A stretch of DNA of 64,000 nucleotides from Candidatus Babeliales bacterium (GTDB lineage: Bacteria; Babelota; Babeliae; Babelales; JACPOV01), in contig JBAVOR010000016.1 in NCBI GenBank assembly GCA_049692255.1, positions 7,006 through 71,005 of the forward strand, read 5' to 3'. Shown here in pieces: positions 6,323-48,266 of the stretch (positions are counted from its first letter, which is position 1; each line of letters opens with the position of its first letter). The notes below the pieces were generated by a model that was not told the DNA's origin, did no database searches, and saw nothing but the letters and a program-made list of their open reading frames with translations. The position numbers and the translations under genes are program-made.

Positions 6323-6765
6323 AAGAACTCTCCTTTAAAATAAAAAGGTTTTTTTTATGATACTATAAAGAGCACGAGGGGTGTCAAGTGATCTTTGTAA
6401 TTTTTTACAAAAATATTCAATTTTAATTACATACCGTCTTCTTTTTTATAAAAATTTTAGAATATATTTTCGTTAAAAAAAGGAATATTTTTTCTTGCAT
6501 GTCATGATGCTAAGTGATAGCTTAAGTGAGTAACGGTACGCGCCTCAATTGTCTAATATAAAATTATTAATTAAAGCAGAGAAGATTGTGTTGATAGCAA
6601 CAAGGGAATCTTTGTCTGTTTTTTGCTGGGGTGATTCTGCAGCGTGCGTATTAAAAAAGAGAGCGCTGTAAAAAAAGTCATCCAGATGCTGTTGATGCGT
6701 GTGCGATGCGTGAGTAGGGTGTAGTAATGATATAAATATTATACATGTACTAAAAGGATAATCGT

Positions 6766-9294: not shown

Positions 9295-9326
9295 CAATGC
9301 AATAGTGCATACCGGGAGTATATATC

Positions 9327-10328: not shown

Positions 10329-10333
10329 TTGAC

Positions 10334-11092: not shown

Positions 11093-11110
11093 GTACGCTT
11101 TTCGGAAATT

Positions 11111-11148
11111 AAAAAAAGCCCTTCGTGTAAAAACACGGGGGCTTTTTT
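11111..11148 (+). terminator. Rho-independent terminator between convergent genes
   Basis: A-run, then hairpin agcccttcgtg/cacgggggct, then T6. Confidence 0.6.
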
Positions 11149-11153
11149 AATGC

Positions 11154-11945: not shown

Positions 11946-12682
11946 TTTTTTCCTTCAAATTCACGCGTCAGGTGTAAAAAAACTTCTTCCAATTTACCTT
12001 TTTGAAAGTTTTTTATTAAATTCTGTGGAGTATCAATCATCTTTATTTCTCCCTGATGCAGCACGCAAACACGGTCAGATAATATTTCTGCTTCGTCAAG
12101 ATAATGGGTCGTTAAAAGAACGGTAACCCCATCAGCCCGGATATCTTTAATATATTGCCACAAGAGATGGCGTACGTCTGGGTCAAGAGCAACCGTTGGT
12201 TCATCAAGAATAATAAATTGTGGCGCATGCATGAGGGTGCGTGCAATCATATACCGTTGCTTCCAACCCCCAGATAAACTATCGGGTGATTGATACAAAA
12301 ACTGTCCTATGCCCAAACGGCTATCCAGGTAATCGATGCGTGTTGCAATTGCTGCACTGTCCATGCCGTAGTAACGGCCCGCATTCACCATATTTTCTTT
12401 GTTAGTTAATAACGGATTCAGATTATTTTTTTGTGCACAGTATCCAATATGCATGCGATAGGCGGGAATATCATGGAATATAGATGCGCCATTAAAAAGA
12501 ATGTCTCCGGCTGATGGCGGATGAATGGTGGCAATCACCGATGAAAGGGTTGTTTTACCGGCTCCATTAACGCCGAGCAAGCTAACGATCTCTCCTGCAA
12601 AGAGATCAAGATTCACTTTTTTAAGCGCTAAAAGTTGACCGTACTTTTTTTCTAAGGAACGTACTTGAATGAGTTTGTTCAT
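11942..12682 (-). CDS. ABC transporter ATP-binding protein
   Basis: Walker A 'GVNGAGKTT', ABC signature 'LSGGWKQR', Walker B 'ILDEP'. Confidence 0.85.
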   Translation of the reverse strand: MNKLIQVRSLEKKYGQLLALKKVNLDLFAGEIVSLLGVNGAGKTTLSSVIATIHPPSAGDILFNGASIFHDIPAYRMHIGYCAQKNNLNPLLTNKENMVNAGRYYGMDSAAIATRIDYLDSRLGIGQFLYQSPDSLSGGWKQRYMIARTLMHAPQFIILDEPTVALDPDVRHLLWQYIKDIRADGVTVLLTTHYLDEAEILSDRVCVLHQGEIKMIDTPQNLIKNFQKGKLEEVFLHLTREFEGKK

Positions 12683-12765
12683 GGATTTTTTTTTAAAAAT
12701 ATTTCTCTACTACCCAAGCATACGAATTTTCATTCATTTGCGCAATTAAGATCAGCATCTATGGG

Positions 12766-14304: not shown

Positions 14305-14418
14305 ATGCTATGTTCCCCTATAAGAGCGAATTATTGATACTATAAATACATATAAAGTATCTTAATAATGCCACATATAATGCCATTTGCCAATTGATTT
14401 GTGGCGACTTTGCAGCGC

Positions 14419-15312
14419 TTACCGCTTGAGTATGATTTTGCGTACCGATAGACCGGTGTCATCATCTTGATTGAGATACGCTATAATAGTGGCTAAATGG
14501 GTCAAAAAAGGGTCGAACAAAAATTCGATATGAGACAGGCCGCGCCAACCAATTTGCACAGAGGCTTGCATAAGACGTTGACCACCATCAAATACCCGTT
14601 CAGAAAATAACGGTACTTTTTTGCTGTCCTTTTGTACGCGCATGTGCGCATACATACCTTGTGGGTCCATAACTTGCATTGAATCTATGCGCGAGAATAG
14701 AGAAATTACCTTTTTAAAGCACGGGGCATGTACCAGATTTTTTGTTTCTTCTTGCACGGGGCACGCCAGCAAAATCAGCTCATCAATAACAAAGTCACTG
14801 TCTTTGTTGCAATACAATGCCATATTCAACGCAACGTTACCTCCATGGCTGTGTGTGATAATACGCACGTAGGGCGCAACAGCATATTTTTGTTGTGTAG
14901 CACGCACGAGTTGGGCTATCTGTTCATACAATACCAGCGCTTCTTTTTTGCGTGTCTGAAAATCAAGTTTTCCCGACCAGCCAAATAGATAAAAATGCTC
15001 TGCAGGGAACAAGGCGGGGCATGCTTTGCTGAGTGTGTTAGCAATGGTACGGTGGTGGTATTTAGGGTCAAGGTCTTGTGCGTGTGAGATGCCAGGCGGG
15101 CTAAAAGAAAAACGGGTCATTATTTTACTAAAAAAAATCTTACTGCCATGCACCCAGATAGTGATGATAGGGCGTTTATGGGGCTTTGAAAACGCATGTG
15201 GTGGAAGCGGCGATTCAATAATAATTTTCTGTGTATCGTGTGGCTGTAATCGGGCATTATGCATAATACTGACTAACAGGACTATTGATAGGCGCATGCG
15301 TTTATAATTCAT
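14419..15312 (-). CDS. Secreted alpha/beta-hydrolase (putative lipase/esterase)
   Basis: Signal peptide. Nucleophile-elbow-like 'ITHSHGGN'. 297 aa. Confidence 0.5.
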   Translation of the reverse strand: MNYKRMRLSIVLLVSIMHNARLQPHDTQKIIIESPLPPHAFSKPHKRPIITIWVHGSKIFFSKIMTRFSFSPPGISHAQDLDPKYHHRTIANTLSKACPALFPAEHFYLFGWSGKLDFQTRKKEALVLYEQIAQLVRATQQKYAVAPYVRIITHSHGGNVALNMALYCNKDSDFVIDELILLACPVQEETKNLVHAPCFKKVISLFSRIDSMQVMDPQGMYAHMRVQKDSKKVPLFSERVFDGGQRLMQASVQIGWRGLSHIEFLFDPFLTHLATIIAYLNQDDDTGLSVRKIILKR

Positions 15313-15358
15313 ATTTTTTTAACCCTTTCGTCTATTCATAATACCAGAGAGTGCATTT

Positions 15359-16672
15359 TTATGAAATAGTGGTGGCCAGTGCGCTGAGTTTTTGGGTTAG
15401 CTGGGTAAGAGATTCGGTAAGCACGTTTGTTGAAGAACGGGGATTGCGGATCGGTTTCTCTGGCAACAGGGCCTCCTGACGCTTATAGATAAAGAAATAG
15501 CCGGTGGGACCGGTTGGCGAGCCGTTAATTTCAGTAATTGCATCAGCAGAAAGTTCTGTGCCTACACGGGTAATGGTGCTATCATCACACCGGTACCAAA
15601 CCTGTTCTTTTTTAACATAGGCCCAGTAATGACCCCCAGACAGACCGCCTCCTTGGACCACCACGCTACTTAATGCATAGTGTGATGCTGCTTTACTACT
15701 CGTTGATGCTAATGCAGGATGCAGGGGGCGGACCCACGGTGACACATCAAGCTCCAAAGGAATAGCGATGGCGTGATTCACTTTTTGACGGGCAAGAGCG
15801 GTATAGGTGTAACGGTTCACATTAATACAAAGATAGGGAGGTGTGGTTAAAAAAAATAATTGTTTGATACAATCAGTGCGCACGTGGCCGCTGTTATCTT
15901 TGTATGCATCGAGTAGTTCCGGTTTGAAATATACTGCTAAGCACGAAGCAAGATCGGTGAGCGGTGTTTGTTGCGCGTCCAAAGCGGGCACGGTAAGAAC
16001 GCCAGGGCCATTTTCTGCCGTATCAGTTTCTAGCAATGGGGTGGTTGGTGCCTCATGAGCAGGGCAAGAAATGCGCGATACATAGATATTATGAAACAAC
16101 TGTTTAATACGCGTCTGTTGTATTTTCTGTTGCAGCAATACTGATTGGGGATTTTGTTTTAACTGTTCTTGCAATTGAGCAAGCGCACTATTGAGTACCA
16201 CTGCTTCTTTGTCGGTTATCGCGTGGCTAGTGCAACTATCTAAAAAACGGATAATAAATTCTCCCGCATCTTGTTGCGAACATACTTGGGCCTCAAAGAA
16301 TTCATTGTATGCACTGTCGCCTAACTTTTTGAGAGGGCCTTGCGTACAAGAAAATGTATGGGTGCCATCCAGATACTGTTGCACCAGTTGCGTAAAATAA
16401 TGTGCAGTAGGGTTAGTTGCCAGAGGAAACAGGGTTGATGCATTAGATCCGTACAAAATAGAAGTGAACGCCGGAATGTTGAGAAGTGCTTGCACTGATG
16501 CATTTAAAAAGCAGGTGTTGCCGCAGTTAAGCAAAGCGGGTGGTGTTGCGTTGTTGTGCGCGTTCATTAACAAGAATATGGTACTAATAATACGCAACAC
16601 CTGCGATACGTTATTATTTCTCATGCAGTACCCTGTCAGGCGCATGCATGTTTCTATTTTTATGCCAGGCAT
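15359..16672 (-). CDS. Eukaryote-like ubiquitin-specific protease (USP/UCH, peptidase C19) deubiquitinase
   Basis: Cys box 'LLNCGNTCFLNASVQALL'. His box 'GGHYWAYVKKE'. Asp box 'WYRCDDSTITRV'. Confidence 0.8.
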   Translation of the reverse strand: MPGIKIETCMRLTGYCMRNNNVSQVLRIISTIFLLMNAHNNATPPALLNCGNTCFLNASVQALLNIPAFTSILYGSNASTLFPLATNPTAHYFTQLVQQYLDGTHTFSCTQGPLKKLGDSAYNEFFEAQVCSQQDAGEFIIRFLDSCTSHAITDKEAVVLNSALAQLQEQLKQNPQSVLLQQKIQQTRIKQLFHNIYVSRISCPAHEAPTTPLLETDTAENGPGVLTVPALDAQQTPLTDLASCLAVYFKPELLDAYKDNSGHVRTDCIKQLFFLTTPPYLCINVNRYTYTALARQKVNHAIAIPLELDVSPWVRPLHPALASTSSKAASHYALSSVVVQGGGLSGGHYWAYVKKEQVWYRCDDSTITRVGTELSADAITEINGSPTGPTGYFFIYKRQEALLPEKPIRNPRSSTNVLTESLTQLTQKLSALATTIS

Positions 16673-31498: not shown

Positions 31499-32560
31499 AT
31501 GCTTTATTTTTTAGCTCAATATGCGCAAGAATATTGTTCCGTTTTTCACGTTATTCACTACGTGAGTTTCCGTGCTATAGGGGGTTTGCTTACCGCACTC
31601 ATCTGTTCATTTATCTGGGGTAACCGCTTTATTGCCAAAGCAAAGCAGCTCTTTCGCTCGAAAGCGCGTGAGTTGACTCCCGAAAGTCACCGTGCAAAAG
31701 ATAATATGCCCACGATGGGAGGGTTATTTATTTTATGCGTATTCGTGGCCAATGTGCTGCTTTGGTGCAATTTACAGCAACCGAATGTATGGATCTTTTT
31801 ATGCGGCGTAGTTGGGTTTGGTGCCATTGGCTTTTTTGATGATTGGTCAAAGATTTATTATAAAAAAGGAATATCAGCACGTACCAAATTTATACTCCAA
31901 TGGGGCATTAGCCTTATTACGATGGCGCTGTTGCTCAATACCGGCTTTTCTACAACCATAACATTCCCCTTTATTAAATGGTTTCAGCCTGCTCTTGGTA
32001 TGTTTTTTCTTCTGTGGGGGGCGTTTTTGATGACCGCTACCAGCAATGCAGTGAACTTAACCGATGGACTTGATGGGCTTGCAATTGTTTCGCTCATTCC
32101 TAACTTTGCATTTTTTACCGGTGTTTCGTATTTGGCCGGCCATTATCAGCTAGCCCATTATCTGAATATTCCCTTTGCAGGGAGCGCAGAGTTAGCGGTG
32201 ATTGGTGCTATTTTAGTGGGAGCTTCGATTGGCTTTCTTTGGTATAACGCATACCCAGCACAAATTTTCATGGGAGACGTTGGTTCTTTGGCGCTCGGTA
32301 GTGCTTTAGCGTTGCTTGCACTGTTATCTAAGCAAGAACTGTTACTCGCCATTTCTGGCGGGCTCTTTGTGGCGGAAACGCTGTCAGTAATTGCGCAGGT
32401 GTGGTCTTTCCGTTATTTAGGCAAACGGATTTTTCGTATGGCCCCTATGCATCATCATTTTGAGCTATTGGGCTGGCAAGAAGCGAAGATTACCATTCGC
32501 TTTGGTATTATTTCATTAATATTGTGCTTGCTGGCGGCAATTACATTAAAACTGCGGTAA
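31499..32560 (+). CDS. mraY: Phospho-N-acetylmuramoyl-pentapeptide transferase
   Basis: 353 aa polytopic membrane protein. MraY family motifs 'PTMGG' and 'DGLDGLA'. 'HHHFE' region. Confidence 0.85.
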   Translation: MLYFLAQYAQEYCSVFHVIHYVSFRAIGGLLTALICSFIWGNRFIAKAKQLFRSKARELTPESHRAKDNMPTMGGLFILCVFVANVLLWCNLQQPNVWIFLCGVVGFGAIGFFDDWSKIYYKKGISARTKFILQWGISLITMALLLNTGFSTTITFPFIKWFQPALGMFFLLWGAFLMTATSNAVNLTDGLDGLAIVSLIPNFAFFTGVSYLAGHYQLAHYLNIPFAGSAELAVIGAILVGASIGFLWYNAYPAQIFMGDVGSLALGSALALLALLSKQELLLAISGGLFVAETLSVIAQVWSFRYLGKRIFRMAPMHHHFELLGWQEAKITIRFGIISLILCLLAAITLKLR

Positions 32561-35402: not shown

Positions 35403-35441
35403 AAAAAGCCTCGACGAATGTAGATTCAGTCGGGGCTTTTT
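35403..35441 (+). terminator. Rho-independent terminator-like hairpin upstream of the giant gene
   Basis: 'aaaaagcctcgac-gaatgtagattca-gtcggggcttttt'. 8/9 bp stem flanked by an A-run and a T-run. Confidence 0.5.
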
Positions 35442-35596
35442 AATTTGAACTAAAAACGTATTTGATTATAAGAAATAATTTCGCTGCAAAAAAAAGCAAA
35501 AAAACTATTGTATAAGTATGCTTGCATTTTTTAAAAGGATTTGATTTTATCAATCTAATTGATTGTGTCCTGATATCTAAAAAAAGGTTGAGTGAT

Positions 35597-38500
35597 ATGT
35601 ATGGATTAACTATTTTTCTGGCGATGTTATTTTCTTCTTTTGCTTCTCTTGACGCTACTCTGCAAACAAGACGTTTTCATAATATTCTGGTTGGAAATAA
35701 TACCACTACAAATTATCTCAATGTTTTAAGACAAGTATTTATTGATGGGGATCTTTTTGTAAAGGGAACCATTAATGGTTCAGGGGGAAATTCAGGATTT
35801 ATTCAAGCAGTGCCAGGAGCGACGATTAATGCGGTACCACGGTTTGCTAATGCCAATGGTTCACAGCTCGCTAATTCTTCTGTTTTAATCGATAATGCGG
35901 GCAACGTCACGTTAAATGGTATTACTAAAAATGGTATTACTGTTGCATGGCCATCAACTGCTGGTGCTGCGGGCACGTTTTTAGCGAATGATGGTGCGGG
36001 TAATTTAGTATATGCTACCCCTGCTGGTGCAGGTAACGTATCAACAGCATTAAATTTTACCACTAACAATGCATTAACGCGTGTTGATCTACCCAGTGGA
36101 GTAAATAATATTCAACAATCGGTGGTGACGCTTGATAATAGCGGCAACATTGCCGGGGTGAATCAATTAGTAGCAGGAACTTTTTTTGGTTCTTTGCAAG
36201 GTAATGCGGCCAGTGCTACTAATTTTACTGGGTCATTAGCGGGTGATGTGAGTGGTACACAAACTGCTACTGTTGTCAATTCGGTAGGCGGTCAGTCTGC
36301 TGCTGCTGTGGCAAATGCTGCATTCGCAGTTACGAATGCAACGCCAAACAGTGTGCCGAACACGCTGGTTGAACGTGATGCATCACGTAACTTTAGTGCG
36401 GGTACTATTACGGCCAGCTTAATGGGCGCTGCATCATTAAATGTGCTAAAAAGTGGCGATACCATGACAGGCCCTTTGGTAATGGGGACGCAGACAGCAG
36501 TTCGTCTACAAGATGCGGGTGGTACGAACTATGTGGGGTTGAATGCACCCAGCAGTGTAACTAGTAGTTATACCATGAGCATGCCGGGCACAGCACCGGT
36601 CTCTGGGCAATTTTTACAAGCCTCTGCAGCCAATGCATTGCAGTGGGCAGACATTGGGGGTTTACCATCGACTGGTCGTACTATTTATGTATCAAAAGAT
36701 GGCAGTGATAGTAACGATGGTTCGCTTTCTGCTCCTTTTTTAACCGTTGCACATGCGTTACTAGTCGCTAATACGCTTTCAACAATTTCTAATCCTGTGG
36801 TGGTGCAAGTCGGCGCCGGTGCGTTTATAGAAAACAACTCTGGTGGCGCTTTGGCTATTACAGCAGATGGCATCACGCTTAAAGGTGGTTCAAACCAAGC
36901 AACCATTATTGCACCAACAACGTTATCGATTAACTTATTTAATGTGACAACTCCGAATGTATTATTCAGGGATATTAATCTCAACGCTGGTGTGAGTGGG
37001 TCTACGGCAGCTGCTATTAATATTAATGTGGGGGTCACGGGATTCGGCGGTGGTTGTACTAACGTAAACATTGCACAGTTCCAAACAGGTATTGCACTTA
37101 ACAATTCCAACAGCACTCCTCCCATATTTGTTATCAATTCTGTCAATGCGCAAGGCAATGGTACCGCTGTAGCGGTCAGTAATTACCGTCTTATTATGCA
37201 AAGTTCATCAATATTGGGCCCTTATCTTTCGAGCATTATTCAAAATACCGGCATTTCATTAACGGGTATTAATACGTTGGCAACCATAGATTCATGTGTG
37301 TTTAGATTGTTATTGAACGGCATTACGGTAGCTGGCGGTGCCCCTTTGCGCATTACTGGCAGCCAATTTATTAATATGCAAAACGGCATAGTGTGTTCAG
37401 GAGGGGGTAATGCAGACGTTGTTGGTTGTAATTTCCTGGTGAATACTACTAGTTCAATCAATGTCTCTGCATCAGGAGCTGGCACAACAGTAATAATTGA
37501 TGGTGCAATTTTTAATTGTGTTGATGCTACCAACACGCCGCAGGGAACTGCTGTGCAAGTAACAACGGGTGGATCATTAACGGTGAACTCATCCACTATT
37601 TCAGGTGCAGCACTTGGCATGCAAGCTGGCGCAGCAGGAGATACGAGTACGACAACACTGTTGTCTGTTGGTACCGATATTATTGGTTGTACCGCTGACT
37701 TTACTCAAGCAGGTACATCAACATTCAGATTTGTCGGCGGAGTATTTGATTCTAATTTGGTCACTATTGCCAACGGCACGAATGTCCATCTTTCTCTATT
37801 TGACAGAACCTCTGGCGAAGCATTAACGATTGGTAACAGCACAGATACGAGCCAAGTATTGTACCGCGCATTCAATGGTGAAGCATCATTACCTTTTACC
37901 TCGTATGAGCCAAACTATTATGGCTCTAAAGGGCTTCTTTTCCAAAATCCCAATGCAGATGCAACATTCAGTGGTGTGCAGGCAGCCAGTAATGATGCAA
38001 ACTATTATGTCGTTACCGGCAGCAATACGAATCAAGCGGGCATTAATTTAATTTCTGATACATTAAATATTGGGACTTCTGACTTTGTGCGTGGCTGGAA
38101 TATCAGCAAATTAGGCACATCAGGTAATTTAACGTTCAACTATTCAAATAATGACACTGGTGGCCAAGCAGCGCGCGGCAGCAACCCAGTGATGCAACTG
38201 GATGGCTTTAATAATCAGGTGTTATTTCCCGCGGCAATCAACTCGCCGCTACCGACAAACACCGTGGCTAAATTGGTCTGGAATGGTGATACCGATTTAT
38301 ATCGTGGTGCTGCAGGCACGCTGCAAACAGATGGTAATTTAATTGTTGGCGGTTTAACACCAAACACCGCTGTGACTACTAATGGCAGCGATCAATTAAC
38401 ATCGAGCGTAACCACTGCAACGGAACTGGGCTATGTGTCTGGCGTTACTTCTGCTATACAACCACAGATTAATAATAAAGTTTCAAAAACGGGTGACACG

Positions 38501-41500
38501 ATGACCGGGCCATTGATAATGGCAACACAAACCCCCATTCGTTTTCAAGATGCGGGAGGTGTTAACTATGCAGCTCTCAATGCACCAACTGCAGTAAGCA
38601 GTAGTTATACAGTCAGCTTGCCAACAGCGGCGCCGGCAGCAGCGCAATTTTTACAAGCAGCAACTCCGACAACATTGCAATGGGCAAGTATTGGGGGGGT
38701 GCCCAATGTGAGTCGTACCATCTACGTAGCACAGGGGGGTAATGATAGTAACGATGGCTCATTATCTGCCCCATTTGCTACAATTGCGCATGCGGTGGCA
38801 GTAGCTAATACGTTATCAACATTAACCAATCCGGTGGTGGTTCAAGTTGGTGCTGGCACCTTTATTGAAAATAATTCAGGTGGAGCAATTGCCATCACTG
38901 CAGATGGTATTACCATTAATGGCAGCTCTATTACGGGGACCATTGTAGTACCAAATACGATTTCTAATGCATTATTTAATGTAACAACACCGAACGTACT
39001 CTTTTCTAATATCTATCTCGATGCGGGAACTACGGGATCAACAGCAGCGGGTATTAACGTGAACACCAGTACTACTGGTGAAGGTGGCTGTCATGATATT
39101 GTGCTTTCGCGTTTCCAAACTGGCCTAGCTATCAATAATTCAAATGTAAGCAGCTCCCCTATATTTATTATTAGTTCAATCGAAACGCAAGGGAACAGCA
39201 CTGCTATTGCGGTCAATAATTACCGCGCTATTATTCAAGGTTCTTCATTCTTAGGGCCATTTGTTGCAGGGGCCATTGCGAATACCGGTATTGCATTGAC
39301 GGGAACTCAGACATTAGCAACCTTACTCGCTAACTCATTTCGATTGTTAAGTACTGGCATTACTATCACTGGTGGTGCAGATATGCGTATTACAGGCAGC
39401 AACTTTGATAACATGCAAAATGGGGTAAGCTGTTCTGGTGGCAGTAATGCAGAAATAGTGGGATGCAATTTTATAATTAATGAAGCATCATCGGTGAACA
39501 TATCGGCAGCGGGAGCTGGAACGAATGTTATAGTCAATGGTTGTATTATCGATTGTGCCGATGTGACTGATGCACAGCAAGGAACAGCAGTACAATCGAC
39601 AACCGGTGCAATATTGGTTGTTGGTGCATCAAATATTTCGGCAGCGGCTGTCGGTATCCAATGTGGCACCACGGGCGATACGAGTAGTACCATAGTTGCT
39701 GTATTTTCTACGAATCTGGTTGGTTGTATTAATGATATTACTCAAGTAGCTACAGCAAACCTTCAATTTGTAGGTGGTGTATTTGATTCCAACTTACTGA
39801 GCATTGCCAACAGTGCCAACGTAACCATTTCTGCATTTGATCGATTTTCTAATAATGCGTTAACAATTGGTAATAAAACTGATGTTAGTCAACCTCTTTA
39901 TAAAGTATTAAATGGTGAAGCCTCGTTACCATTTACCTCTTATGAACCAAACTATTATGGCAATAAAGGGCTTCTGTATCAAAACCCGAATGCTGACGCA
40001 ACATTTAATGGTGTGCAAGCGGCCAGCAATGATGCTAACTATTATGTCATTACCGGCAGCAATACCAACCAAGCAGGCATCAACTTAATTTCTGATACAT
40101 TAAATATTGGGACTTCTGATTTTGTGCGTGGTTGGAATATCAGTAAATTGGGTACGTCAGGTAATTTAACATTCAACTATTCAAATAATGACACTGGTGG
40201 CCAAGCAGCGCGTGGTAGCAATCCAGTGATGCAGCTTGATGGATTTAATAATCAAGTGTTATTTCCCGCGGCAATCAATTCACCGCTACCGACAAACACC
40301 GTGGCTAAATTGGTCTGGAATGGTGATACCGATTTATATCGTGGTGCGGCAGGCACGCTGCAAACAGATGGTAATTTAATTGTTGGCGGTTTAACACCAA
40401 ACACCGCTGTGACTACTAATGGCAGCGATCAATTAACATCAAGCGTAACCACTGCAACGGAAATTGGATTTGTTTCTGGCGTCACTTCTGCAATACAGAC
40501 CCAGCTTAATAGTAAATTTCCTGCATCGGGTGGTACATTGACCGGTCCGCTGACATTACCTGCAGGAACTGCAGCGGCGCCATCATTAAATTTTGCTGGA
40601 AGCACTACTACGGGCCTTTCTGCCGCAACGGCAAATACGTTATCCTTTGATACGAATGGTGTTGAACGAATGAAAATCGGAGCAACGGGGACGATAGCTA
40701 TTGATGGATTTACCACTGCGGGTGTAGTACATAATGACGCAAGTGGAAATTTGAGCAGTTCGTTAATTGTTGATGCAGATATTACTACTGGCACCATTAC
40801 CGATGATAAATTACAAACGATTACCACCGGCGGCAAAGTAGCAAACTCTGCTACCACTGCAACATCAGCAAATACACTCAGTACCATTGTCTTGCGTGAT
40901 GGGACTACTGGTGGTTTTAGTGCTGGTGCAATCAGCGCAACGAGCGTAACGGCATCAGCAAATCCTGGATTTTTTGGTAATTTATCGGGCAATGCGACAA
41001 GCGCAACTACTGCTGCATCTGCTACGAGCTTTACTGGTCCATTGCTCGGTGATGTGACCGGTACGCAAAGTGCAACGGTAGTATCAACCGTTGGTGGAGC
41101 TACTGCGGCTGCAGTAGCAACGGCTGCTAATGCAGTAGCCAATGCAACTAATCTGGCTACACCAAGCACCTTGGTATTGCGCGATAGTTCCGGTAATTTT
41201 AGCGGAGGAACTATTACTGCCACAACAGGCTTTTCAGGGAACTTGACGGGTAATGTGACTGGCAATGCCACAACGGCAACGAGCGCAAACACGGCTGGGT
41301 CAGCAACTAATTTTACTGGCTCATTGTCTGGTGATGTCACAGGAACACAGGGCGCAACGGTGGTGAGCTTTGTTGGAGGAAAATCGGCTGCATCAGTTGC
41401 CAATACCGTTACTACCGTGAATGCAGCAACAAGCAATAACACACCAAATACGCTTGTCTTACGTGACGGTAGTGGTAACTTTACTACTAATCAGATTACT

Positions 41501-44500
41501 ATTGCCGGTTCGGTAACAAATCCAACAGATACAGCAACCAAAGCATATGTTGATAGCGTCGCAGCAACCGGGTTAGAAGTGCATACCCCTGCAGTAGTAG
41601 TCAGTACCACTAATGTTGCACTCAGCGGGCTACAAACGATTGATGGCATAACACTAGTTGCTGGAAATCGTGTACTTTTGGTTGGCCAGACCAGTCAAGT
41701 GCAAAATGGGTTATGGGTAGCAGCATCAGGTTCATGGACACGACCAACCGATTTCGCAACGGGTACTGAGGCAGGCCAAGCATATGTGCTTATTTTAGAA
41801 GGTACTAATTTTGGCGGCTCAAGTTGGGTATGTACGACGTCCACAGCAATCATTGATACAGATCCAATTACTTTTGTTGAGTTTTCCCTACCATCACAAA
41901 CTACGGGGGCCAATTTAGGTTCTGGTACTGGTATTTTTGCTAACAAAACTGGCCAAACGCTTAACTTTAAAAGTTTGCTGGAAGGAACCCATGTTGTTAT
42001 AACCAATGATGCTAATACGGTAACACTGGCAACCGACGCAACGAGCGCAGACACCATCAGCACTATAGTAGCACGTGATGGTTCCGGTAATTTTAGTGCA
42101 GGTACTATTACCGCGAGTTTAATTGGTGCGGCATCATTAAACGTATTAAAAGCGGGTGATACCATGACAGGGCCATTAGTTATGGCTACCCAAACGCCAA
42201 TACGTTTTCAAGACGCTGGTGGCACAAACTATGCGGCATTACAGGCTCCAGCAGCGGTAAGTAGCAGTTATGCCGTTGCATTACCGACCGCTGCACCAAA
42301 TGCGGGGCAATATTTACAAGCACTTTCGTCTACTTCCTTACAATGGGCATCGGTCGGTGGTACACCAAACGTGAGTCGTACTATATACGTATCCCAAGAT
42401 GGAAGTGATAGTAATAATGGGTCATTCTCATCACCATTTTTAACTATTGCGCATGCAGTATCGGTTGCAAATAGTCTTTCGACATTAACTAATCCGGTAG
42501 TAATTCAAGTGGGTGCAGGGGTGTTTGTAGAAGATAACTCTGGCGGCGCTATTACTATTACGGCAGATGGCATTACTTTAAATGGTGCGTCTACGATCGG
42601 CACCATCGTAGTGCCAAACACCTTATCAAACACGCTGTTTAATGTTACATCGCCGAATGTGTTATTTTCTAATATCTATCTCGATGCGGGAACTACGGGA
42701 TCTACTGCAGCGGGCGTAACGATCAATACAAGTATCACCGGTGATGGTGGATTTTTAAATGTAGTTCTTTCTCGCTTCCAGACCGGTTTGTCAATTAATA
42801 ACTCAAATATAAGTAGTACGCCGATATTTATCGCTGATGGTATTGAAACGCAAGGCAATGGTACAGCTATCGCGGTAACCAATTACCGTGTTATTATTCA
42901 ATGTTCATCGTTCTTAGGGCCTTTTGGTAACGCAGGATCAATTCAAAATACTGGAATTGCATTGACTGGATCAAGCACATTAGCAACGATGTTGGCCTGC
43001 TCATTTCGTTTATTGAATACGGGTATTTCGGTAACAGGCGGAGCGGCCATGCGTACTACGGGAAATAATTTTGATAATATGCAAAATGGTATTGTCTGCT
43101 CTGGGGGCGGTGATGCGAATATTGTTGGTTGTAACTTTCTTGTTAATGAATCTTCTTCAGTGAACGTGTCTGTAGCGGGCGTTGGTACTGAAGCTATAGT
43201 TAGTAGTTGCATATTCGATTGCCCTGATGCAACTGATACGCCGCAAGGTACAGTGGTGCAAGCAACAACTGGTGCATCATTAACAGTTAATTCATCTACC
43301 ATAACGGGGGCCGTTGTTGGTATTCAATGTGGTACGACTGGAGATACCAGCAGTACTGTGGTTACGATAGATTCAACTGATTTGCAAGAATGCACTAATG
43401 ATATTATGCAAGTGGGTACGTCGACGCTTCGTTTTGTAGGTGGCGTATTTGATACGAATGCAATAAGTATTGCCGATGGTACCAATGTGCATATTTCTGC
43501 TTTTGATAGAACTTCTGGTGAAGCGTTAACGATTGGTAATAATACTGATGCGAGTCAAATGGTGTATCGTGTGCTCAATGGCCAAGCCGCATTACCTTTT
43601 GTATCGTATGAGCCCAACTATTATGGCAACAAAGGACTTTTATATGAAAACGCCAATGCAGATGCAACATTTAATGGTGTGCAAGCAGCAAGTAACGATG
43701 TGAGTTATTATTTAGTTACGGGCAATAACACGAATCAGGCGAGTATTAATTTAATTTCTGATACGGTCAATTTTGGCACTAGTGATTCGGTACGTGGCTG
43801 GAATATTAGTAAATTGGGTACATCTGCTAATTTGACCTTCAATTATTCGAACAATGACACCAGCGGACAAGCAGCACGCGGTAACAATCCGGTGATGCAA
43901 CTCGATGGATTTAATAATCAGGTTTTATTTCCGGCTGCTACCAATACCCCATTACCAACTAACACTGTAGCAAAATTAGTTTGGGCTGGTGATACGAATC
44001 TATATCGCACAGCTGCCAATACGCTGCAAACGGATGGTAATTTTATTATCGGTGGCAATCTCACTGTTGATGCTCTAACGTCTGGTGCAGTAAATCCAAA
44101 TACCGCTATAGTGACTAACGGAACTAATCAATTACTTTCCAGTGTTACCACGGCAACGGAAATTGGATTTGTTTCTGGCGTCACTTCGTCAATACAAACA
44201 CAGCTGAATAGTAAATTTCCTGCATCGGGTGGTACATTGACCGGTCCGCTGACATTACCTGCAGGAACTGCAGCGGCACCATCATTAAATTTTACGGGCA
44301 GCACTACTACGGGCCTTTCTGCTGCAACGGCAAATACGTTATCATTCGATACGAATGGTGTTGAAGCTATGAATATTAATGCAAGTGGGGTAGTGAGTAT
44401 TGATGCATTTACCACTGCAGGTGTAGTACATAACAATGCAAGTGGTAATTTGAGCAGCTCCCTTATTGTTGATGCAGACATTACTACTGGCACCATTACC

Positions 44501-47278
44501 GATGATAAATTACAAACAATTACCACCGGCGGCAAGGTGGCGAACTCTGCTACCACCGCAACACCAGCGAATACCGCAAATGCCATTGTATCACGTGACG
44601 CGAGTGGTAATTTTGCTGCTGGTGCAATCACCGCTAACACGTTTACTGCTAACTCAAATCCTGGGTTCTTTGGTAATCTGTCGGGCAACGCATCTACCGC
44701 AACATCTGCCACCACTGCCATTAGCTTTACCGGGCCTTTGCTGGGTGATGTGACTGGTACGCAAAGTGCAACGGTAGTATCAATGGTAGGCGGCCAAACT
44801 GCGGCAGTAGTGGCAGCTGCGGCATCGGCAGTTGCAAATGCATCGAGCGCAAACAATCCGGGCACTCTGGTGCTACGTGACGGCTCTGGTAATTTTGCTG
44901 CAGGTAAGATTACTATTACAGGAGGCACCGCTGCTGCACCATCATTACAGTTTAGCAATGGTACCAACACAGGATTCTCATCGCCTTCAGCCAATACATT
45001 GTCATTTGATGTGAATGGTACACAGGCGTTGGGCATTGCAACGAATACAAACGCAACATTTGCGGGTACTGTTACTGCTTCCTCCGGTTTTTTTGGCCCA
45101 TTAACAGGTAACGTTACGGGTAATATAACTGGTTCAGTGACATTACCTGCAGGCACTGCTGCGGTTCCATCATTGCAGTTTAGTAATGGCACCAACACCG
45201 GTATGTCTTCACCGGTTGCTAACACCTTGTCATTTGATATCAGTGGTGCTGAAGCAATGAATATTAATACAAGTGGTGTGGTCACCATTGATGCATTTAC
45301 TACCGCTGGTGTGGTGCATAACAATGCGAGTGGTAATTTGAGCAGTTCGCTGATTGTTGATGCAGACATTACTACGGGCACTATTACTGATGATAAATTG
45401 CAAACGATTAGTACGGGTGGCAAAGTTGCAAATTCTGCTACCACCGCAACACCAGCAAATACCGCAAATGCCATAGTATCTCGCGATGCGAGTGGTAATT
45501 TTGCTGCTGGTGCAATCACTGCAAACACATTCACTGCCAACTCTAATCCCGGATTTATCGGCAACTTATCGGGCAACGCGTCGACTTCAACATCAGCAAC
45601 CACAGCGGTTAGTTTTACTGGCCCATTGATGGGTGATGTTACTGGTAACCAGACAGCAACCGTGGTATCAACAGTTGGTGGTGCATCAGCAGCTTCAGTA
45701 GCGAGCACGGTTACTACCGTTAACGCAGCAACCAGTTCAAATATTGCAAGCACATTAGTGCTGCGTAACGGCACAGGCGGATTTAGTGCAGGCACTATCA
45801 ATGCAACCAGTTTTGTAGGACCGCTTACCGGTAATGTTACCGGTAACGTTACTGGCAACATTACCGGTTTAGTGACATTGCCAGCAGGCACTGCTGCAGC
45901 GCCATCATTAAACTTTACCGGTAGTTTGACCACTGGTCTTTCTGCCGCAACAGCAAATAGATTATCTTTTGACACGAATGGCACTGAACAGATGGCAATC
46001 GGTGCAACCGGCACTATTACTATGACCAGCTTAGCTGGCACGGCAGGAGTAGTGCACAATGATGCGAGCGGTAATTTAAGCAGTTCTTTAATTGTTAACG
46101 CAGACGTATCTGCAACTGCAGCAATAGTAGACACCAAACTTGGTACCATTCAAACAGCAGGCAAAGTGTTAAACTCTGCCACTACTGCTACCAGTGCCAA
46201 TACTGCAAATGCTATTGTTGCTCGCGATGCGAGTGGCAACTTTAGTGCGGGCACCATTACCGCCAGCTTGATGGGTGCAGTAACATTACCCGCAGGGACT
46301 GCCGCCGTGCCATCATTGCAATTTACGGGAAGTAGCAATACCGGCCTTTCAGCAGCGACGGCAAATAGGTTATCATTTGACACCAGTGGTGCTGAGCGTA
46401 TGAGTATTAGCCCAGTTGGTACCGTGGCGATTAATGGTTTTGTGACTACGGGTGTAGTGCATAACGATGCGAGCGGTAACTTATCAAGTTCTTTAATTGT
46501 TGATGCAGACATTACTACCGGTACTATTACCAATGATAAATTAGTAACTCTTACAGCAACAGGCTTAGTAGCAAACTCTGCGACCACAGCCACCACAGCG
46601 AATACCTTGAGCACGATAGTGCTACGTGATGGAACAACTGGTGGCTTTAGCGCAGGTACCATTACGGCAACATTTTCAGGAAATTTATCTGGTAATGTTA
46701 CCGGCAATCTTACGGGGAATGTGATAGGCTCGGCTTCATTAAACGTGTTAAAAGCAGGTGATACGATGACTGGTACATTAACGTTACCAGCAGGCACTGC
46801 TGCAGCGCCATCATTACAATTTACGGGCAGTACTAATACGGGTATCTCGGCCCCATCAGCTAATACATTGTCATTTGATGTGAATGGTACGCAGGGGCTA
46901 AGTATTACTACAGCGGCTATTATTGATGCGTTGCCATGGTGTAATCAGGCAATAATGAGCGCAACACCAACAACGGGCAGTACTATTACGACCACTGCTA
47001 CTACTTCAATTTTATTGCTCAAAAATACAACAAACGTTACTGGTGTGACTATTGATTTCCCACCTAATCCAACGAATGGTCAGATGTTTACCATTATGTT
47101 AGGCACGACCAGCACTATTACTATGACCAACGCAGGGGGTACGGGCGGTGCAACTATTGTTAATGGCGTTACTGGTTTAAATGCTACTGCTACACCGACT
47201 GCCACAGCAAACGGCGCAGCGGTTGCCTACTTGTATAGCTCAACTTCAAATGCATGGTATCGCATGTGGCGTGGATAA
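35597..47278 (+). CDS. Giant (~3,890 aa) secreted fibrous protein: 3 pectate-lyase-like beta-helix modules plus ~15 phage-tail-fibre-like repeats
   Basis: Single uninterrupted ORF. Start at signal peptide 'MYGLTIFLAMLFSSFASLDA' (the ORF is open from 35522). Each beta-helix module begins 'SGDTMTGPL...RTIYVS.DGSDSNDGS.S.PF.T.AHA...NPVV.QVGAG.F.ENNSGGA..ITADGIT'. About 15 repeats of '...NT...LV.RD.SGNFSAG.ITA' and 'LPAGTAAAPSL.F.G...TG.S...ANTLSFD.NG.E.M'. Confidence 0.85.
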   Translation: MYGLTIFLAMLFSSFASLDATLQTRRFHNILVGNNTTTNYLNVLRQVFIDGDLFVKGTINGSGGNSGFIQAVPGATINAVPRFANANGSQLANSSVLIDNAGNVTLNGITKNGITVAWPSTAGAAGTFLANDGAGNLVYATPAGAGNVSTALNFTTNNALTRVDLPSGVNNIQQSVVTLDNSGNIAGVNQLVAGTFFGSLQGNAASATNFTGSLAGDVSGTQTATVVNSVGGQSAAAVANAAFAVTNATPNSVPNTLVERDASRNFSAGTITASLMGAASLNVLKSGDTMTGPLVMGTQTAVRLQDAGGTNYVGLNAPSSVTSSYTMSMPGTAPVSGQFLQASAANALQWADIGGLPSTGRTIYVSKDGSDSNDGSLSAPFLTVAHALLVANTLSTISNPVVVQVGAGAFIENNSGGALAITADGITLKGGSNQATIIAPTTLSINLFNVTTPNVLFRDINLNAGVSGSTAAAININVGVTGFGGGCTNVNIAQFQTGIALNNSNSTPPIFVINSVNAQGNGTAVAVSNYRLIMQSSSILGPYLSSIIQNTGISLTGINTLATIDSCVFRLLLNGITVAGGAPLRITGSQFINMQNGIVCSGGGNADVVGCNFLVNTTSSINVSASGAGTTVIIDGAIFNCVDATNTPQGTAVQVTTGGSLTVNSSTISGAALGMQAGAAGDTSTTTLLSVGTDIIGCTADFTQAGTSTFRFVGGVFDSNLVTIANGTNVHLSLFDRTSGEALTIGNSTDTSQVLYRAFNGEASLPFTSYEPNYYGSKGLLFQNPNADATFSGVQAASNDANYYVVTGSNTNQAGINLISDTLNIGTSDFVRGWNISKLGTSGNLTFNYSNNDTGGQAARGSNPVMQLDGFNNQVLFPAAINSPLPTNTVAKLVWNGDTDLYRGAAGTLQTDGNLIVGGLTPNTAVTTNGSDQLTSSVTTATELGYVSGVTSAIQPQINNKVSKTGDTMTGPLIMATQTPIRFQDAGGVNYAALNAPTAVSSSYTVSLPTAAPAAAQFLQAATPTTLQWASIGGVPNVSRTIYVAQGGNDSNDGSLSAPFATIAHAVAVANTLSTLTNPVVVQVGAGTFIENNSGGAIAITADGITINGSSITGTIVVPNTISNALFNVTTPNVLFSNIYLDAGTTGSTAAGINVNTSTTGEGGCHDIVLSRFQTGLAINNSNVSSSPIFIISSIETQGNSTAIAVNNYRAIIQGSSFLGPFVAGAIANTGIALTGTQTLATLLANSFRLLSTGITITGGADMRITGSNFDNMQNGVSCSGGSNAEIVGCNFIINEASSVNISAAGAGTNVIVNGCIIDCADVTDAQQGTAVQSTTGAILVVGASNISAAAVGIQCGTTGDTSSTIVAVFSTNLVGCINDITQVATANLQFVGGVFDSNLLSIANSANVTISAFDRFSNNALTIGNKTDVSQPLYKVLNGEASLPFTSYEPNYYGNKGLLYQNPNADATFNGVQAASNDANYYVITGSNTNQAGINLISDTLNIGTSDFVRGWNISKLGTSGNLTFNYSNNDTGGQAARGSNPVMQLDGFNNQVLFPAAINSPLPTNTVAKLVWNGDTDLYRGAAGTLQTDGNLIVGGLTPNTAVTTNGSDQLTSSVTTATEIGFVSGVTSAIQTQLNSKFPASGGTLTGPLTLPAGTAAAPSLNFAGSTTTGLSAATANTLSFDTNGVERMKIGATGTIAIDGFTTAGVVHNDASGNLSSSLIVDADITTGTITDDKLQTITTGGKVANSATTATSANTLSTIVLRDGTTGGFSAGAISATSVTASANPGFFGNLSGNATSATTAASATSFTGPLLGDVTGTQSATVVSTVGGATAAAVATAANAVANATNLATPSTLVLRDSSGNFSGGTITATTGFSGNLTGNVTGNATTATSANTAGSATNFTGSLSGDVTGTQGATVVSFVGGKSAASVANTVTTVNAATSNNTPNTLVLRDGSGNFTTNQITIAGSVTNPTDTATKAYVDSVAATGLEVHTPAVVVSTTNVALSGLQTIDGITLVAGNRVLLVGQTSQVQNGLWVAASGSWTRPTDFATGTEAGQAYVLILEGTNFGGSSWVCTTSTAIIDTDPITFVEFSLPSQTTGANLGSGTGIFANKTGQTLNFKSLLEGTHVVITNDANTVTLATDATSADTISTIVARDGSGNFSAGTITASLIGAASLNVLKAGDTMTGPLVMATQTPIRFQDAGGTNYAALQAPAAVSSSYAVALPTAAPNAGQYLQALSSTSLQWASVGGTPNVSRTIYVSQDGSDSNNGSFSSPFLTIAHAVSVANSLSTLTNPVVIQVGAGVFVEDNSGGAITITADGITLNGASTIGTIVVPNTLSNTLFNVTSPNVLFSNIYLDAGTTGSTAAGVTINTSITGDGGFLNVVLSRFQTGLSINNSNISSTPIFIADGIETQGNGTAIAVTNYRVIIQCSSFLGPFGNAGSIQNTGIALTGSSTLATMLACSFRLLNTGISVTGGAAMRTTGNNFDNMQNGIVCSGGGDANIVGCNFLVNESSSVNVSVAGVGTEAIVSSCIFDCPDATDTPQGTVVQATTGASLTVNSSTITGAVVGIQCGTTGDTSSTVVTIDSTDLQECTNDIMQVGTSTLRFVGGVFDTNAISIADGTNVHISAFDRTSGEALTIGNNTDASQMVYRVLNGQAALPFVSYEPNYYGNKGLLYENANADATFNGVQAASNDVSYYLVTGNNTNQASINLISDTVNFGTSDSVRGWNISKLGTSANLTFNYSNNDTSGQAARGNNPVMQLDGFNNQVLFPAATNTPLPTNTVAKLVWAGDTNLYRTAANTLQTDGNFIIGGNLTVDALTSGAVNPNTAIVTNGTNQLLSSVTTATEIGFVSGVTSSIQTQLNSKFPASGGTLTGPLTLPAGTAAAPSLNFTGSTTTGLSAATANTLSFDTNGVEAMNINASGVVSIDAFTTAGVVHNNASGNLSSSLIVDADITTGTITDDKLQTITTGGKVANSATTATPANTANAIVSRDASGNFAAGAITANTFTANSNPGFFGNLSGNASTATSATTAISFTGPLLGDVTGTQSATVVSMVGGQTAAVVAAAASAVANASSANNPGTLVLRDGSGNFAAGKITITGGTAAAPSLQFSNGTNTGFSSPSANTLSFDVNGTQALGIATNTNATFAGTVTASSGFFGPLTGNVTGNITGSVTLPAGTAAVPSLQFSNGTNTGMSSPVANTLSFDISGAEAMNINTSGVVTIDAFTTAGVVHNNASGNLSSSLIVDADITTGTITDDKLQTISTGGKVANSATTATPANTANAIVSRDASGNFAAGAITANTFTANSNPGFIGNLSGNASTSTSATTAVSFTGPLMGDVTGNQTATVVSTVGGASAASVASTVTTVNAATSSNIASTLVLRNGTGGFSAGTINATSFVGPLTGNVTGNVTGNITGLVTLPAGTAAAPSLNFTGSLTTGLSAATANRLSFDTNGTEQMAIGATGTITMTSLAGTAGVVHNDASGNLSSSLIVNADVSATAAIVDTKLGTIQTAGKVLNSATTATSANTANAIVARDASGNFSAGTITASLMGAVTLPAGTAAVPSLQFTGSSNTGLSAATANRLSFDTSGAERMSISPVGTVAINGFVTTGVVHNDASGNLSSSLIVDADITTGTITNDKLVTLTATGLVANSATTATTANTLSTIVLRDGTTGGFSAGTITATFSGNLSGNVTGNLTGNVIGSASLNVLKAGDTMTGTLTLPAGTAAAPSLQFTGSTNTGISAPSANTLSFDVNGTQGLSITTAAIIDALPWCNQAIMSATPTTGSTITTTATTSILLLKNTTNVTGVTIDFPPNPTNGQMFTIMLGTTSTITMTNAGGTGGATIVNGVTGLNATATPTATANGAAVAYLYSSTSNAWYRMWRG
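36452..38489 (+). repeat. Beta-helix module copy 1 (intragenic ~2.04 kb tandem unit)
   Basis: Starts 'agtggcgataccatgacaggccc'. Its 3' part (38100-38440) is more than 95% identical to 40140-40480. Confidence 0.7.
38490..40440 (+). repeat. Beta-helix module copy 2
   Basis: Starts 'acgggtgacacgatgaccgggcc'. Protein-level co-linear with copies 1 and 3. Confidence 0.7.
40441..42153 (+). repeat. Tail-fibre-like repeat array 1
   Basis: 'EIGFVSGVTSAIQTQLNSKFPASGGTLTGPLTLPAGTAAAPSL...'. 40461-40665 is about 95% identical to 44161-44365. Confidence 0.65.
42154..44150 (+). repeat. Beta-helix module copy 3
   Basis: Starts 'gcgggtgataccatgacagggcc'. The flanking 'gcatcattaaacgt.ttaaaag' is shared with copy 1. 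Confidence 0.7.
44151..46790 (+). repeat. Tail-fibre-like repeat array 2 (about 6 units of irregular length)
   Basis: 'LPAGTAA(A/V)PSL' recurs at about 44257, 45143, 45880, 46285 and 46783. 'VHN(D/N)ASGNLSSSLIVDADITTGTITDDKL' recurs four times. Confidence 0.65.
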
Positions 47279-47396
47279 CAATAGTATTTATTCTCTTTCG
47301 ACCAAAAAGATGCAAGTATGCTGCTTATCATTGCAAGCTATAGGCAGTATACTTGTTTACATACGTAATCATGATGCAATCAGGGGGATACGAACC

Positions 47397-47816
47397 ATGG
47401 AACAAAGAAATATCTTTATCAACACGCCGGCAGGCATATTAAAAAGCGTGATAACACCGCAAGGAATCACCAGTACACTGTTTGTTGACGCATTGCCAAA
47501 GGGCGCATCAATACAGGAACATCCTGAGTCTTTACGTTTTGCGCTTACCGGCACTCCACTGCAAGTAAAAGTGTGGCATGCACTTCAAGCTATCCCGGTT
47601 GGCAAAACAGTGTCATATCAAGAACTGGCAATTATATGTGGGTATCCGCGTGCATGGCGTGCAGTTGCCAATGCCGTAGGGAAAAACCCTATCTCCTATT
47701 TTATTCCGTGCCATCGAGTGATACGCAAAGATGGAACGCTTGGCGGTTACGCCTGGGGCCTCGAGCGCAAACGATTGCTTTTGCACGCAGAGAAAATAAC
47801 AGATAAAAAAAGTTAA
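47397..47816 (+). CDS. ogt: Methylated-DNA--protein-cysteine methyltransferase
   Basis: Active-site 'IPCHRVI'. HTH 'VSYQELA'. Start chosen at 'MEQRNIF' (the ORF is open from 47181 but overlaps the giant gene). Confidence 0.75.
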   Translation: MEQRNIFINTPAGILKSVITPQGITSTLFVDALPKGASIQEHPESLRFALTGTPLQVKVWHALQAIPVGKTVSYQELAIICGYPRAWRAVANAVGKNPISYFIPCHRVIRKDGTLGGYAWGLERKRLLLHAEKITDKKS

Positions 47817-48192: not shown

Positions 48193-48212
48193 ACGCACGC
48201 ATAGTTTTGAAA

Positions 48213-48253
48213 ATAAAAAAAGCCCCAGGTTTTTATGCCTGGGGCTTTTTTTA
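48213..48253. terminator. Bidirectional rho-independent terminator
   Basis: 'aaaaaaagccccagg-tttttat-gcctggggcttttttt'. Perfect 8 bp GC-rich stem flanked by A7 and T7. Sits between convergent genes. Confidence 0.85.
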
Positions 48254-48266
48254 TTTTGGGTTACTT

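Follow-up and report, generated by a model that had tools for sequence, protein, structure and literature searches.

What does an 11.7-kb gene in the genome of an uncultured Candidatus Babeliales (Dependentiae) bacterium encode, and how did long stretches within it come to be nearly identical to one another? The gene was studied within the window, that is, the whole 64-kb stretch of DNA that was analyzed (64,000 nucleotides). The open reading frame (ORF) list and the translation give a single uninterrupted frame of 3,893 amino acids plus stop over 11.7 kb at 35597-47278 (+), the product of which is deposited at NCBI as MGB8467931.1, a "hypothetical protein" of a metagenome-assembled genome (MAG); an identical sequence with the same ATG start was retrieved as P0039. 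The ATG at 35597 is preceded by a purine-rich stretch (AAGG..GAG), and a terminator-like hairpin of the upstream gene is located at ~35404-35440. Apart from a chance Prefoldin hit, the protein had no Pfam match at E <= 0.1, it had no NCBIfam match, and it had no sequence match to curated beta-helix families such as Pfam Beta_helix and Pectate_lyase_3.

The original prediction described 2.04-kb tandem units more than 95% identical and ~3.7-kb units about 95% identical. The duplications were confirmed as real and far beyond chance, with corrections to both spacing and identity. Block 38100-38440 matches 40137-40477 with 93.8% identity at an offset of 2,037 nt (679 codons, in frame), whereas an offset of 2,040 gives an identity at chance level (28.7%). 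Likewise, block 40461-40665 matches 44160-44364 with 94.1% identity at an offset of 3,699 nt (1,233 codons, in frame) compared to 27.3% at 3,700. Identity above 95% is confined to the sub-block 38240-38420 (97-98%), and the longest exact repeats are 92, 71, and 65 nt. The 5' parts of the modules were found to be more diverged, as had been claimed (~55-73% nucleotide identity in their 5' two-thirds). Tandem Repeats Finder reported nothing relevant at the locus because the repeat periods exceed 500; the protein self-comparison was performed with the query cut into chunks.

Self-comparison and motif mapping divided the gene into the following parts, all on the + strand. A signal-peptide-like hydrophobic N-terminal segment read from the translation, MYGLTIFLAMLFSSFASLDA (35597-35656), is followed by an N-terminal fibre region with short tail-fibre-like repeats (35657-36439; GDVSGTQ and an RDxxxNFSAG-type motif), which is kept in all related loci. 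Module A1 (36440-38476; 679 aa) comprises a GDTMTGPL connector, a predicted beta-helix, and a conserved C-terminal third. Module A2 (38477-40513; 679 aa), with a predicted beta-helix core at ~38708-39856, abuts A1 directly to form a tandem, and module A3 (42140-44209; 690 aa) lies 3.66 kb further on, where an 11-aa insertion near its end moves the offset from 3,666 to 3,699. Fibre repeat block 1 (40514-41506) consists of B units (LPAGTAAAPSLNF...VVHNDASGNL...RDxxGxFSAG) and C units (GDVTGTQ...RDxSGNF), and is followed by a single-copy phage-type domain (41588-41875; protein residues 1998-2093). Fibre repeat block 2 (44210-46738; repeat families D1, D2, and D7-D11) contains approximately five B units interleaved with C units, with a mutual nucleotide identity of 60-88%. 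A C-terminal knob of ~110 aa (46946-47275), which family alignment shows to be common to the whole family, ends in WYRMWRG.

The locus had also been described as a hotspot for assembly collapse. It is indeed a hotspot, although of fragmentation rather than collapse: for this organism, two short-read contigs from Logan break off precisely where the outermost repeated 31-mers lie, at 38077 (inferred from the record coordinates) and 45490 (read directly), and related genes are frequently cut at contig ends. The order and number of modules in the interior (38077-45490) derive solely from the assembly of this MAG, and a short-read assembler could be misled by exact repeats 65-92 nt long, which makes the module count of this MAG provisional. 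Because short-read assemblies of the gene break precisely at repeated k-mers, most metagenome bins give no reliable estimate of its length or copy number. Chimeric or mis-joined repeats could on these grounds (contigs of the same run that break at repeats, exact repeats of up to 92 nt, end-clipped related genes) have created the arrangement wholly or in part. We regard such an artefact as unlikely, because the 11.7-kb reading frame is unbroken, the three modules differ pairwise at 24-31% of residues and thus none is a copy-paste of another, and two relatives (L005 and L007) possess intact three-module genes with the same mosaic on contigs of 0.7-1.4 Mb.

The high-identity stretches form two homogenised tracts on the + strand. 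Tract 1 (37880-38476, partner 39917-40513, offset 2,037) covers the 3' ends of A1 and A2; it is 91% identical over 581 nt, and 44 of its 51 mismatches (86%) fall at codon position 3, mostly as transitions. Synonymous divergence (pS), which is saturated across most of each module (0.55-0.85), falls to 0.10-0.39 in this tract, compared to 0.55-0.80 upstream of it, and to 0.10-0.15 at the A1/A2 3' end itself; as the module end is approached, third-position identity rises from 0.43 to 0.97. Between A1 and A2, up to 30 consecutive third codon positions are identical, compared to a maximum run of 23 in permutations (0/20,000 permutations reach 30). Tract 2 (40440-40860, partner 44139-44559, offset 3,699) spans the junction between module A and the first B repeat and is 88% identical, with a third-position identity of 0.65-0.90 versus a baseline of 0.25-0.5 (max-segment permutation test, 0/10,000).

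Strong purifying selection on the C-terminal part of the modules, without recombination between copies, could in principle yield such stretches, and the C-terminal third is both the best conserved part between genomes (52-68% versus 36-51% for the centre) and low in pN (~0-0.04). However, A1 and A2 are nearly identical at synonymous sites as well, whereas the equivalent segment of A2/A3 has a pS of 0.5-0.7 at a similar pN (0.03-0.13), so purifying selection alone is insufficient; the A2/A3 comparison also argues against extreme segment-specific codon bias. This explanation is further at odds with the concentration of A1/A2 differences at third positions, with the permutation result for the run of 30, and with the low pS at module 3' ends in relatives (0.00-0.25 in L005, L006, and part of L007, with 0.00 reached in the first two); we consider it very unlikely.

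The local pS drop in A1/A2 and the same drop in relatives point instead to recurrent localized gene conversion, not selection alone. At the level of sequence comparison, the synonymous sites establish that the near-identical stretches were produced by gene conversion or unequal exchange that was localized and occurred repeatedly. The exchange proposed originally was thereby upheld, but not its description as ongoing: conversion in this genome has been recurrent and is not demonstrably ongoing, as the A1/A2 ends remain ~9% different, mostly at synonymous sites. Modules group by genome, with 69-76% identity inside the window versus <=58% to any other genome. Synonymous-site analysis shows that the modules arose via intragenic duplication and that exchange homogenises their conserved 3' third and the module-to-shaft junctions, whereas the bodies of the beta-helices have remained diverged. 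For the helix centres, positive selection was unsupported, with a gross pN/pS below 1 and saturated pS in these regions. The fibre family provides a clean natural case of mosaic concerted evolution, in which junctions are homogenised and presumed ligand-facing bodies are free to diverge.

Variability of this gene could alternatively be generated by a diversity-generating retroelement (DGR) acting on a tail-fibre-like target, and DGR targets are often tail-fibre-like receptor-binding proteins. Nevertheless, differences between repeat partners have no adenine specificity and are mostly third-position transitions, the homogenised tracts are 400-600 nt long and lie inside coding modules, and no reverse-transcriptase match was obtained among the flanking ORFs scanned (part of the ORFs of the window). 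A DGR variable protein was rejected as exceedingly improbable.

The modules were assessed by structure prediction. AlphaFold2 modelled residues 78-460 of module A2 as a right-handed parallel beta-helix with regular rungs (pLDDT ~90), and Foldseek searches of the PDB matched this core to alginate epimerases/lyases, GH87, and the tailspikes phi29 gp12, HK620, and Sf6 (probability 1.0, E 2e-6 to 5e-4). Each of the three modules is confidently predicted to hold a right-handed beta-helix core of the tailspike/pectate-lyase fold; confidence was low (pLDDT <50) for the conserved C-terminal third. In the central rungs, G or N account for most of the invariant columns, among which no conserved acidic residues appear, and the central helix is the most variable part of the module (centres 28-69% identical). 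The knob was modelled as an all-beta domain, a beta-sandwich (pLDDT >90), with weak Foldseek matches to a phage capsid spike and to CBA120 TSP4 N-terminal domains (E 1e-3 to 2e-2). Fibre repeat block 1 had a local match to PHROG 5342 "tail fiber protein" (E 8e-22), and the single-copy domain matched PDB 9nx3 "capsid decoration protein" (E 1.6e-10 and 4.6e-12) as well as 324 phage records in tblastn, labelled as tail fibre or virion proteins.

An exhaustive profile search retrieved 470 representatives at E <= 1e-30; a word-indexed search with module A2 had yielded only 8 matches, and the family looked rare until the profile search. No second genome of the same species was found in the searches made (a single member makes up the 90% cluster, and module A2 has a best match of 53% identity). 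Within the genome collection, close relatives occur only in Dependentiae/Babeliales or untyped MAGs, and many Dependentiae genomes possess the gene intact, with synteny partly conserved; for instance, locus L008 has the downstream DEAD-box helicase in common (63% identical). The family plan includes a hydrophobic leader, N-terminal shaft repeats, at least one 679-aa A module, B/C shaft repeats, the phage-type domain, and a WYRxxRG knob, and each of these components was found in the window gene as well as in related loci (MGB8467931.1, MFA6066704.1, and P0038-P0184). The expectation of length variability was borne out among related genomes: family proteins have 1 to 5 full modules and range from ~870 to 7,500 aa, and two of them (P0044 and P0050) hold modules that are 100% identical to each other within the protein.

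The PHROG 5342 match, the phage-type domain at residues 1998-2093, and the tailspike-like predicted fold would also be consistent with a prophage or tailocin tail fibre or tailspike, or a decaying remnant of one, rather than a cellular surface protein. We find this improbable given the genomic setting. The flanking genes are housekeeping genes (mnmG, mraY, a permease, ogt, a DEAD-box helicase, and umuDC) and ORFs without a match, and no phage structural genes were identified among the flanking ORFs examined, so that a virion component was rejected by gene context: the neighbours are not a phage, prophage, or tailocin cluster, despite the PHROG 5342 similarity. No tRNA or Rfam families were detected in the 64-kb window. 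Moreover, the protein has a hydrophobic N-terminal leader, which virion proteins normally do not have, and such leaders also begin the complete homologues P0003, P0004, and P0007; the fibre protein is probably Sec-exported, judging from the reading of this N-terminus. Intact genes across many Dependentiae genomes argue in the same direction, as do the IMG/VR contigs, among which the full module was not found; the sole part common to viral contigs is the beta-helix N-cap motif YVSxxGSDSNDGS..PF.T (~90 aa).

Like phage tailspikes (phi29 gp12, HK620, Sf6, and CBA120), the protein is predicted to have a body formed by a right-handed parallel beta-helix, which begins with a cap motif and is flanked by fibre-like segments, and the helix centre is the most variable part; the likeness derives from the predicted fold, and no Pfam beta-helix family was matched. 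In contrast to tailspikes, the gene lies in a bacterial chromosome without phage genes, its product has a hydrophobic leader, and three helices, rather than one per protein, are concatenated in one 3,893-aa chain. With phage tail fibres (PHROG 5342; PDB 9nx3 domain) it shares, at significant E-values, GDTMTG and RDxxGNF-type shaft motifs and one ~100-aa domain, although these matches are local (24-41% of a 561-aa query, 33-46% identity) and the context and architecture in the window are cellular.

The streptococcal alpha C/Rib and staphylococcal Aap/SasG proteins exemplify large, repetitive surface proteins of bacteria in which intragenic repeats undergo concerted evolution and differ in number. 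Like them, the window gene has repeats arranged in tandem and in frame that recombination has homogenised, the number of copies differs between genomes, and the repeats are troublesome for assemblers. However, its units are very large (679 aa) and correspond to whole enzyme-like beta-helix domains that are only partly homogenised, with similar ends and diverged centres, and no domain families are held in common. Giant ORFs with few annotated domains and a proposed role in target-cell attachment or degradation have been described in the host-dependent Omnitrophota (PMC10066038; bioRxiv 10.1101/2023.11.21.568195). Shared features are the very large gene, the few annotated domains, the symbiotic or parasitic lifestyle, and the proposed surface-attachment role, whereas the Omnitrophota belong to another phylum, their ORFs exceed 20 kb compared to 11.7 kb here, and their folds are antiparallel beta-helix and SecA-like parts rather than parallel tailspike-type helices.

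We propose with moderate confidence that this single gene encodes a giant secreted fibre composed of three tailspike-like modules, fibre-repeat shafts, and a knob, with repeats shaped by conversion and a putative role in attachment. The modules are strung on phage-tail-fibre-like shafts and capped by the small C-terminal beta-sandwich knob. Dependentiae are obligate intracellular bacteria of protists. In such a parasite, the predicted folds suggest, the protein may serve as a surface attachment fibre whose diverged beta-helix modules bind, and perhaps cut, glycans of the protist host, which would make it a multivalent equivalent, carried on a cell, of the receptor-binding proteins of phages. 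The original prediction of host-range or immune-evasion roles is narrowed: immune evasion is unsupported as worded, the likely hosts being protists, and a role in host range or attachment is more plausible given the fold and domain content. More tentatively, it is possible that Dependentiae took over phage receptor-binding parts (beta-helix, shaft, and knob) to build giant "poly-tailspike" fibres for host recognition and entry, in which the number of modules (1 to 5) and the helix centres would set the host range and conversion would keep the modules interchangeable.

Attachment and entry of Dependentiae into protists are not addressed in the literature searched, and queries combining Dependentiae with tail fibres or giant proteins returned nothing on this fibre family, whose members are annotated only as "hypothetical". 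A secreted fibre with several diverged tailspike-like modules represents a concrete, testable candidate for host recognition. Two other types of adhesin were considered and rejected. No Ig-like, cadherin, or RTX Pfam domains were detected, as would be found in a giant RTX, Bap, or Ig-repeat adhesin. A trimeric autotransporter adhesin is contradicted by the missing YadA-type anchor (no Pfam match) and by the C-terminus, a soluble-looking beta-sandwich ending in WYRMWRG. Separately, one JGI fragment is named as a trimeric autotransporter, which is an automatic label only.

The longest reading of the giant ORF extends from 35522 to 47278 on the plus strand, and the gene likely starts at the ATG at 35597, giving a modular protein of 3,893 aa. 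The public protein collection includes an identical entry that has the same start (NCBI MGB8467931.1, 'MAG: hypothetical protein WCE21_02915 [Candidatus Babeliales bacterium]'), and no Pfam or NCBIfam family matched the sequence. The domain order was established by chunked protein self-comparison, a unit HMM, and a motif map. A hydrophobic leader at the N-terminus is followed by a shaft of short repeats (~260 aa), the large modules A1 (residues 282-960) and A2 (residues 961-1639), which abut directly, a first block of B and C shaft repeats (1640-1970), a single-copy domain (~1975-2120), module A3 with an 11-aa insertion (2182-2871), a second shaft block of approximately five B units interleaved with C units (2872-3714), and a C-terminal domain ending in WYRMWRG. 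Three antisense ORFs within the gene, at 44128-46149 (673 aa), 40429-41442 (337 aa), and 46150-46797 (215 aa) on the minus strand, are most likely by-products of its biased, repetitive Gly/Thr/Ala/Ser codon content and not genes.

The giant gene is thus modular, with three predicted tailspike-fold modules. In the AlphaFold2 model of A2, built from a 10-row alignment, residues 78-460 form a right-handed parallel beta-helix (pLDDT ~90), and the fold of the first 77 and last ~220 residues is not confident. Foldseek comparison with the PDB matched this model to mannuronan epimerases/lyases and GH87 glucanases, as well as to tailspikes and appendages of phages phi29 (gp12), HK620, Sf6, CBA120, and Phi92 (probability ~1.0, E 2e-6 to 5e-4). 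The shaft repeats match PHROG 5342 'tail fiber protein' (E 8e-22), and the single-copy domain matches the 'capsid decoration protein' of PDB entry 9nx3 (E 1.6e-10 and 4.6e-12) and, by tblastn, 324 phage records labeled as tail-fiber or virion proteins. The C-terminal 110 aa are predicted with confidence to adopt an all-beta fold, which resembles phage spike domains only weakly. Viral contigs have in common with the module only a ~90-aa helix N-cap.

The long near-identical duplications originally predicted within 36452-46790 are real for both pairs of blocks, although their quoted spacings of 2,040 and 3,700 nt were slightly wrong, giving identities of 27-29%, which is the chance level. Block 38100-38440 is 93.8% identical to its partner at +2,037 nt, and block 40461-40665 is 94.1% identical to its partner at +3,699 nt, both offsets being divisible by three. 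A sliding profile revealed that the +2,037 similarity covers a full 2,037-nt unit (36440-38476 versus 38477-40513), with ~55-73% identity over the first two-thirds and a climb to 87-98% over 37880-38420. The +3,699 tract (~40440-40860) is 85-97% identical, and exact repeats in the gene reach 92, 71, and 65 nt.

In Nei-Gojobori windows on codon alignments of A1, A2, and A3, synonymous divergence is saturated in all pairs over almost the full module length (pS 0.5-0.8), too high for positive selection to be judged. Only at the 3' end of A1/A2 does pS drop, stepwise from 0.56 to 0.39, 0.37, 0.10, and 0.15. Over the same segment, A2/A3 retains a pS of 0.5-0.7 with a nonsynonymous divergence (pN) of 0.03-0.13; thus, purifying selection accounts for the amino acid conservation of the module 3' end but not for the synonymous identity of A1 and A2. 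Third-position identity between A1 and A2 rises gradually from ~0.43 to 0.97 toward the module end, and the longest run of identical third positions (30) was reached in none of 10,000 and none of 20,000 shuffles, whose maxima were 29 and 23. A gradual increase of this kind is compatible with several conversion events that differ in age and have a common 3' junction. Since 44 of the 51 differences in this tract fall at third codon positions and their spectrum is not adenine-specific, a DGR was excluded. Module A2 is nearer to A3 in its first and middle thirds (78% and 69%), but its last third is nearer to A1 (92%). Such a hybrid is expected when modules that had already diverged undergo unequal exchange or conversion.

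The same behavior was observed in related loci of other genomes. At module 3' ends, synonymous divergence likewise collapses to 0.00-0.25 in all three pairs of L005, in L006, and in part of L007, and a smaller dip occurs at the 5' ends in L005 (modules 2/3) and L006. Modules cluster by genome, being 69-76% identical inside the window versus at most 58% to any other genome. Across the family, intragenic pairs have a U-shaped identity profile, with similar ends and central beta-helix sixths that are only 28-55% identical. These data show recurrent, localized homogenization at module ends and junctions.

Module copy number also changes across the family, whose proteins are up to 7,500 aa long. 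An exhaustive profile search retrieved 470 cluster representatives at E <= 1e-30; among the best 150, one full module was counted in 77 proteins, two in 17, three in seven, and four and five in one protein each. A word-indexed search with A2 yielded only eight relatives because it scored just the 8,000 candidates with the most words in common, a list that low-complexity shaft motifs probably flooded. In two homologs, P0044 (2,098 aa) and P0050 (7,500 aa), two modules match at ~100% identity across >650 aa, through either very recent duplication of a whole module or an assembly artifact. In two Microflora Danica MAGs, a series of 4 to 10 or more adjacent ORFs replaces the single homologous gene and jointly spans two to three modules (L006, with ENA copy L002, at 4225-16402; L003, from the same ENA series as L002, at 3358-14466), owing to either assembly frameshift errors or real pseudogenization.

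The expectation of an assembly hotspot was borne out, in the form of fragmentation and not of collapse. Run SRR28002569 yielded two Logan short-read contigs that match the window at 100% identity. One stops at 38077, as given by its record coordinates, where the final unique 31-mer precedes the first run of repeated ones (38048-38082 = 40085-40119). The second stops exactly at 45490, where 31-mers first become unique again on the right of the repeat 44600-44631 = 45488-45519. Both contigs stop at repeated 31-mers, and the giant gene is therefore a fragmentation hotspot, with its interior (38077-45490) supported by the MAG assembly alone. Many metagenomic family members are fragments on 0.6- to 3-kb contigs or run off contig ends. 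Protein and module homolog searches found no second genome of this species.

The hydrophobic leader, also present in complete homologs, suggests that the protein is exported. It may form a fiber, which the analogy with tailspikes suggests is probably trimeric. For this presumed obligate intracellular organism, the fiber would bind host-surface glycans multivalently; differing specificities may come from the diverged helix centers, and the conserved junctions may act as recombination substrates. A role of the putative fiber in host range is plausible, whereas protist hosts make the immune-evasion role also proposed unlikely. The protein would work like phage receptor-binding proteins and repetitive bacterial adhesins evolving in concert, but it belongs to neither by sequence-family or context criteria. 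Literature searches for Dependentiae with tail fiber or giant proteins found no paper on this family. Large surface proteins commonly show intragenic repeats and conversion; what is unusual here is the joining in series, within a cellular Dependentiae gene, of entire tailspike-like modules, together with the consistent mosaic pattern.

The giant gene is flanked by ordinary bacterial genes (mnmG, a lone mraY, an amino acid permease, ogt, a DEAD-box helicase, and umuDC), with no phage genes among the flanking ORFs examined. Among one-genome-per-species GTDB contigs, close module relatives occur only in Dependentiae/Babeliales or untyped 'bacterium' MAGs, and L008 has a 63% identical DEAD-box helicase in the same downstream position. 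The full-length mraY (31499-32560, plus strand; TIGR00445, E 2e-104) lies between an unannotated ORF and the permease, outside any cell-division/cell-wall (dcw) cluster. The longest ogt ORF (47181-47816, plus strand) overlaps the giant gene 3' end by ~98 nt; as called on the Logan contig (168 aa), it starts near 47310 without overlap. Just beyond the 3' end of the convergent helicase gene, a strong hairpin at 48210-48257 with a 20-bp stem, bordered on either side by T and A runs, resembles a bidirectional terminator. At 53185-55022 on the minus strand, a umuD-like (Peptidase_S24) and umuC pair encodes error-prone polymerase V, here in a bacterium presumed to be obligately intracellular.
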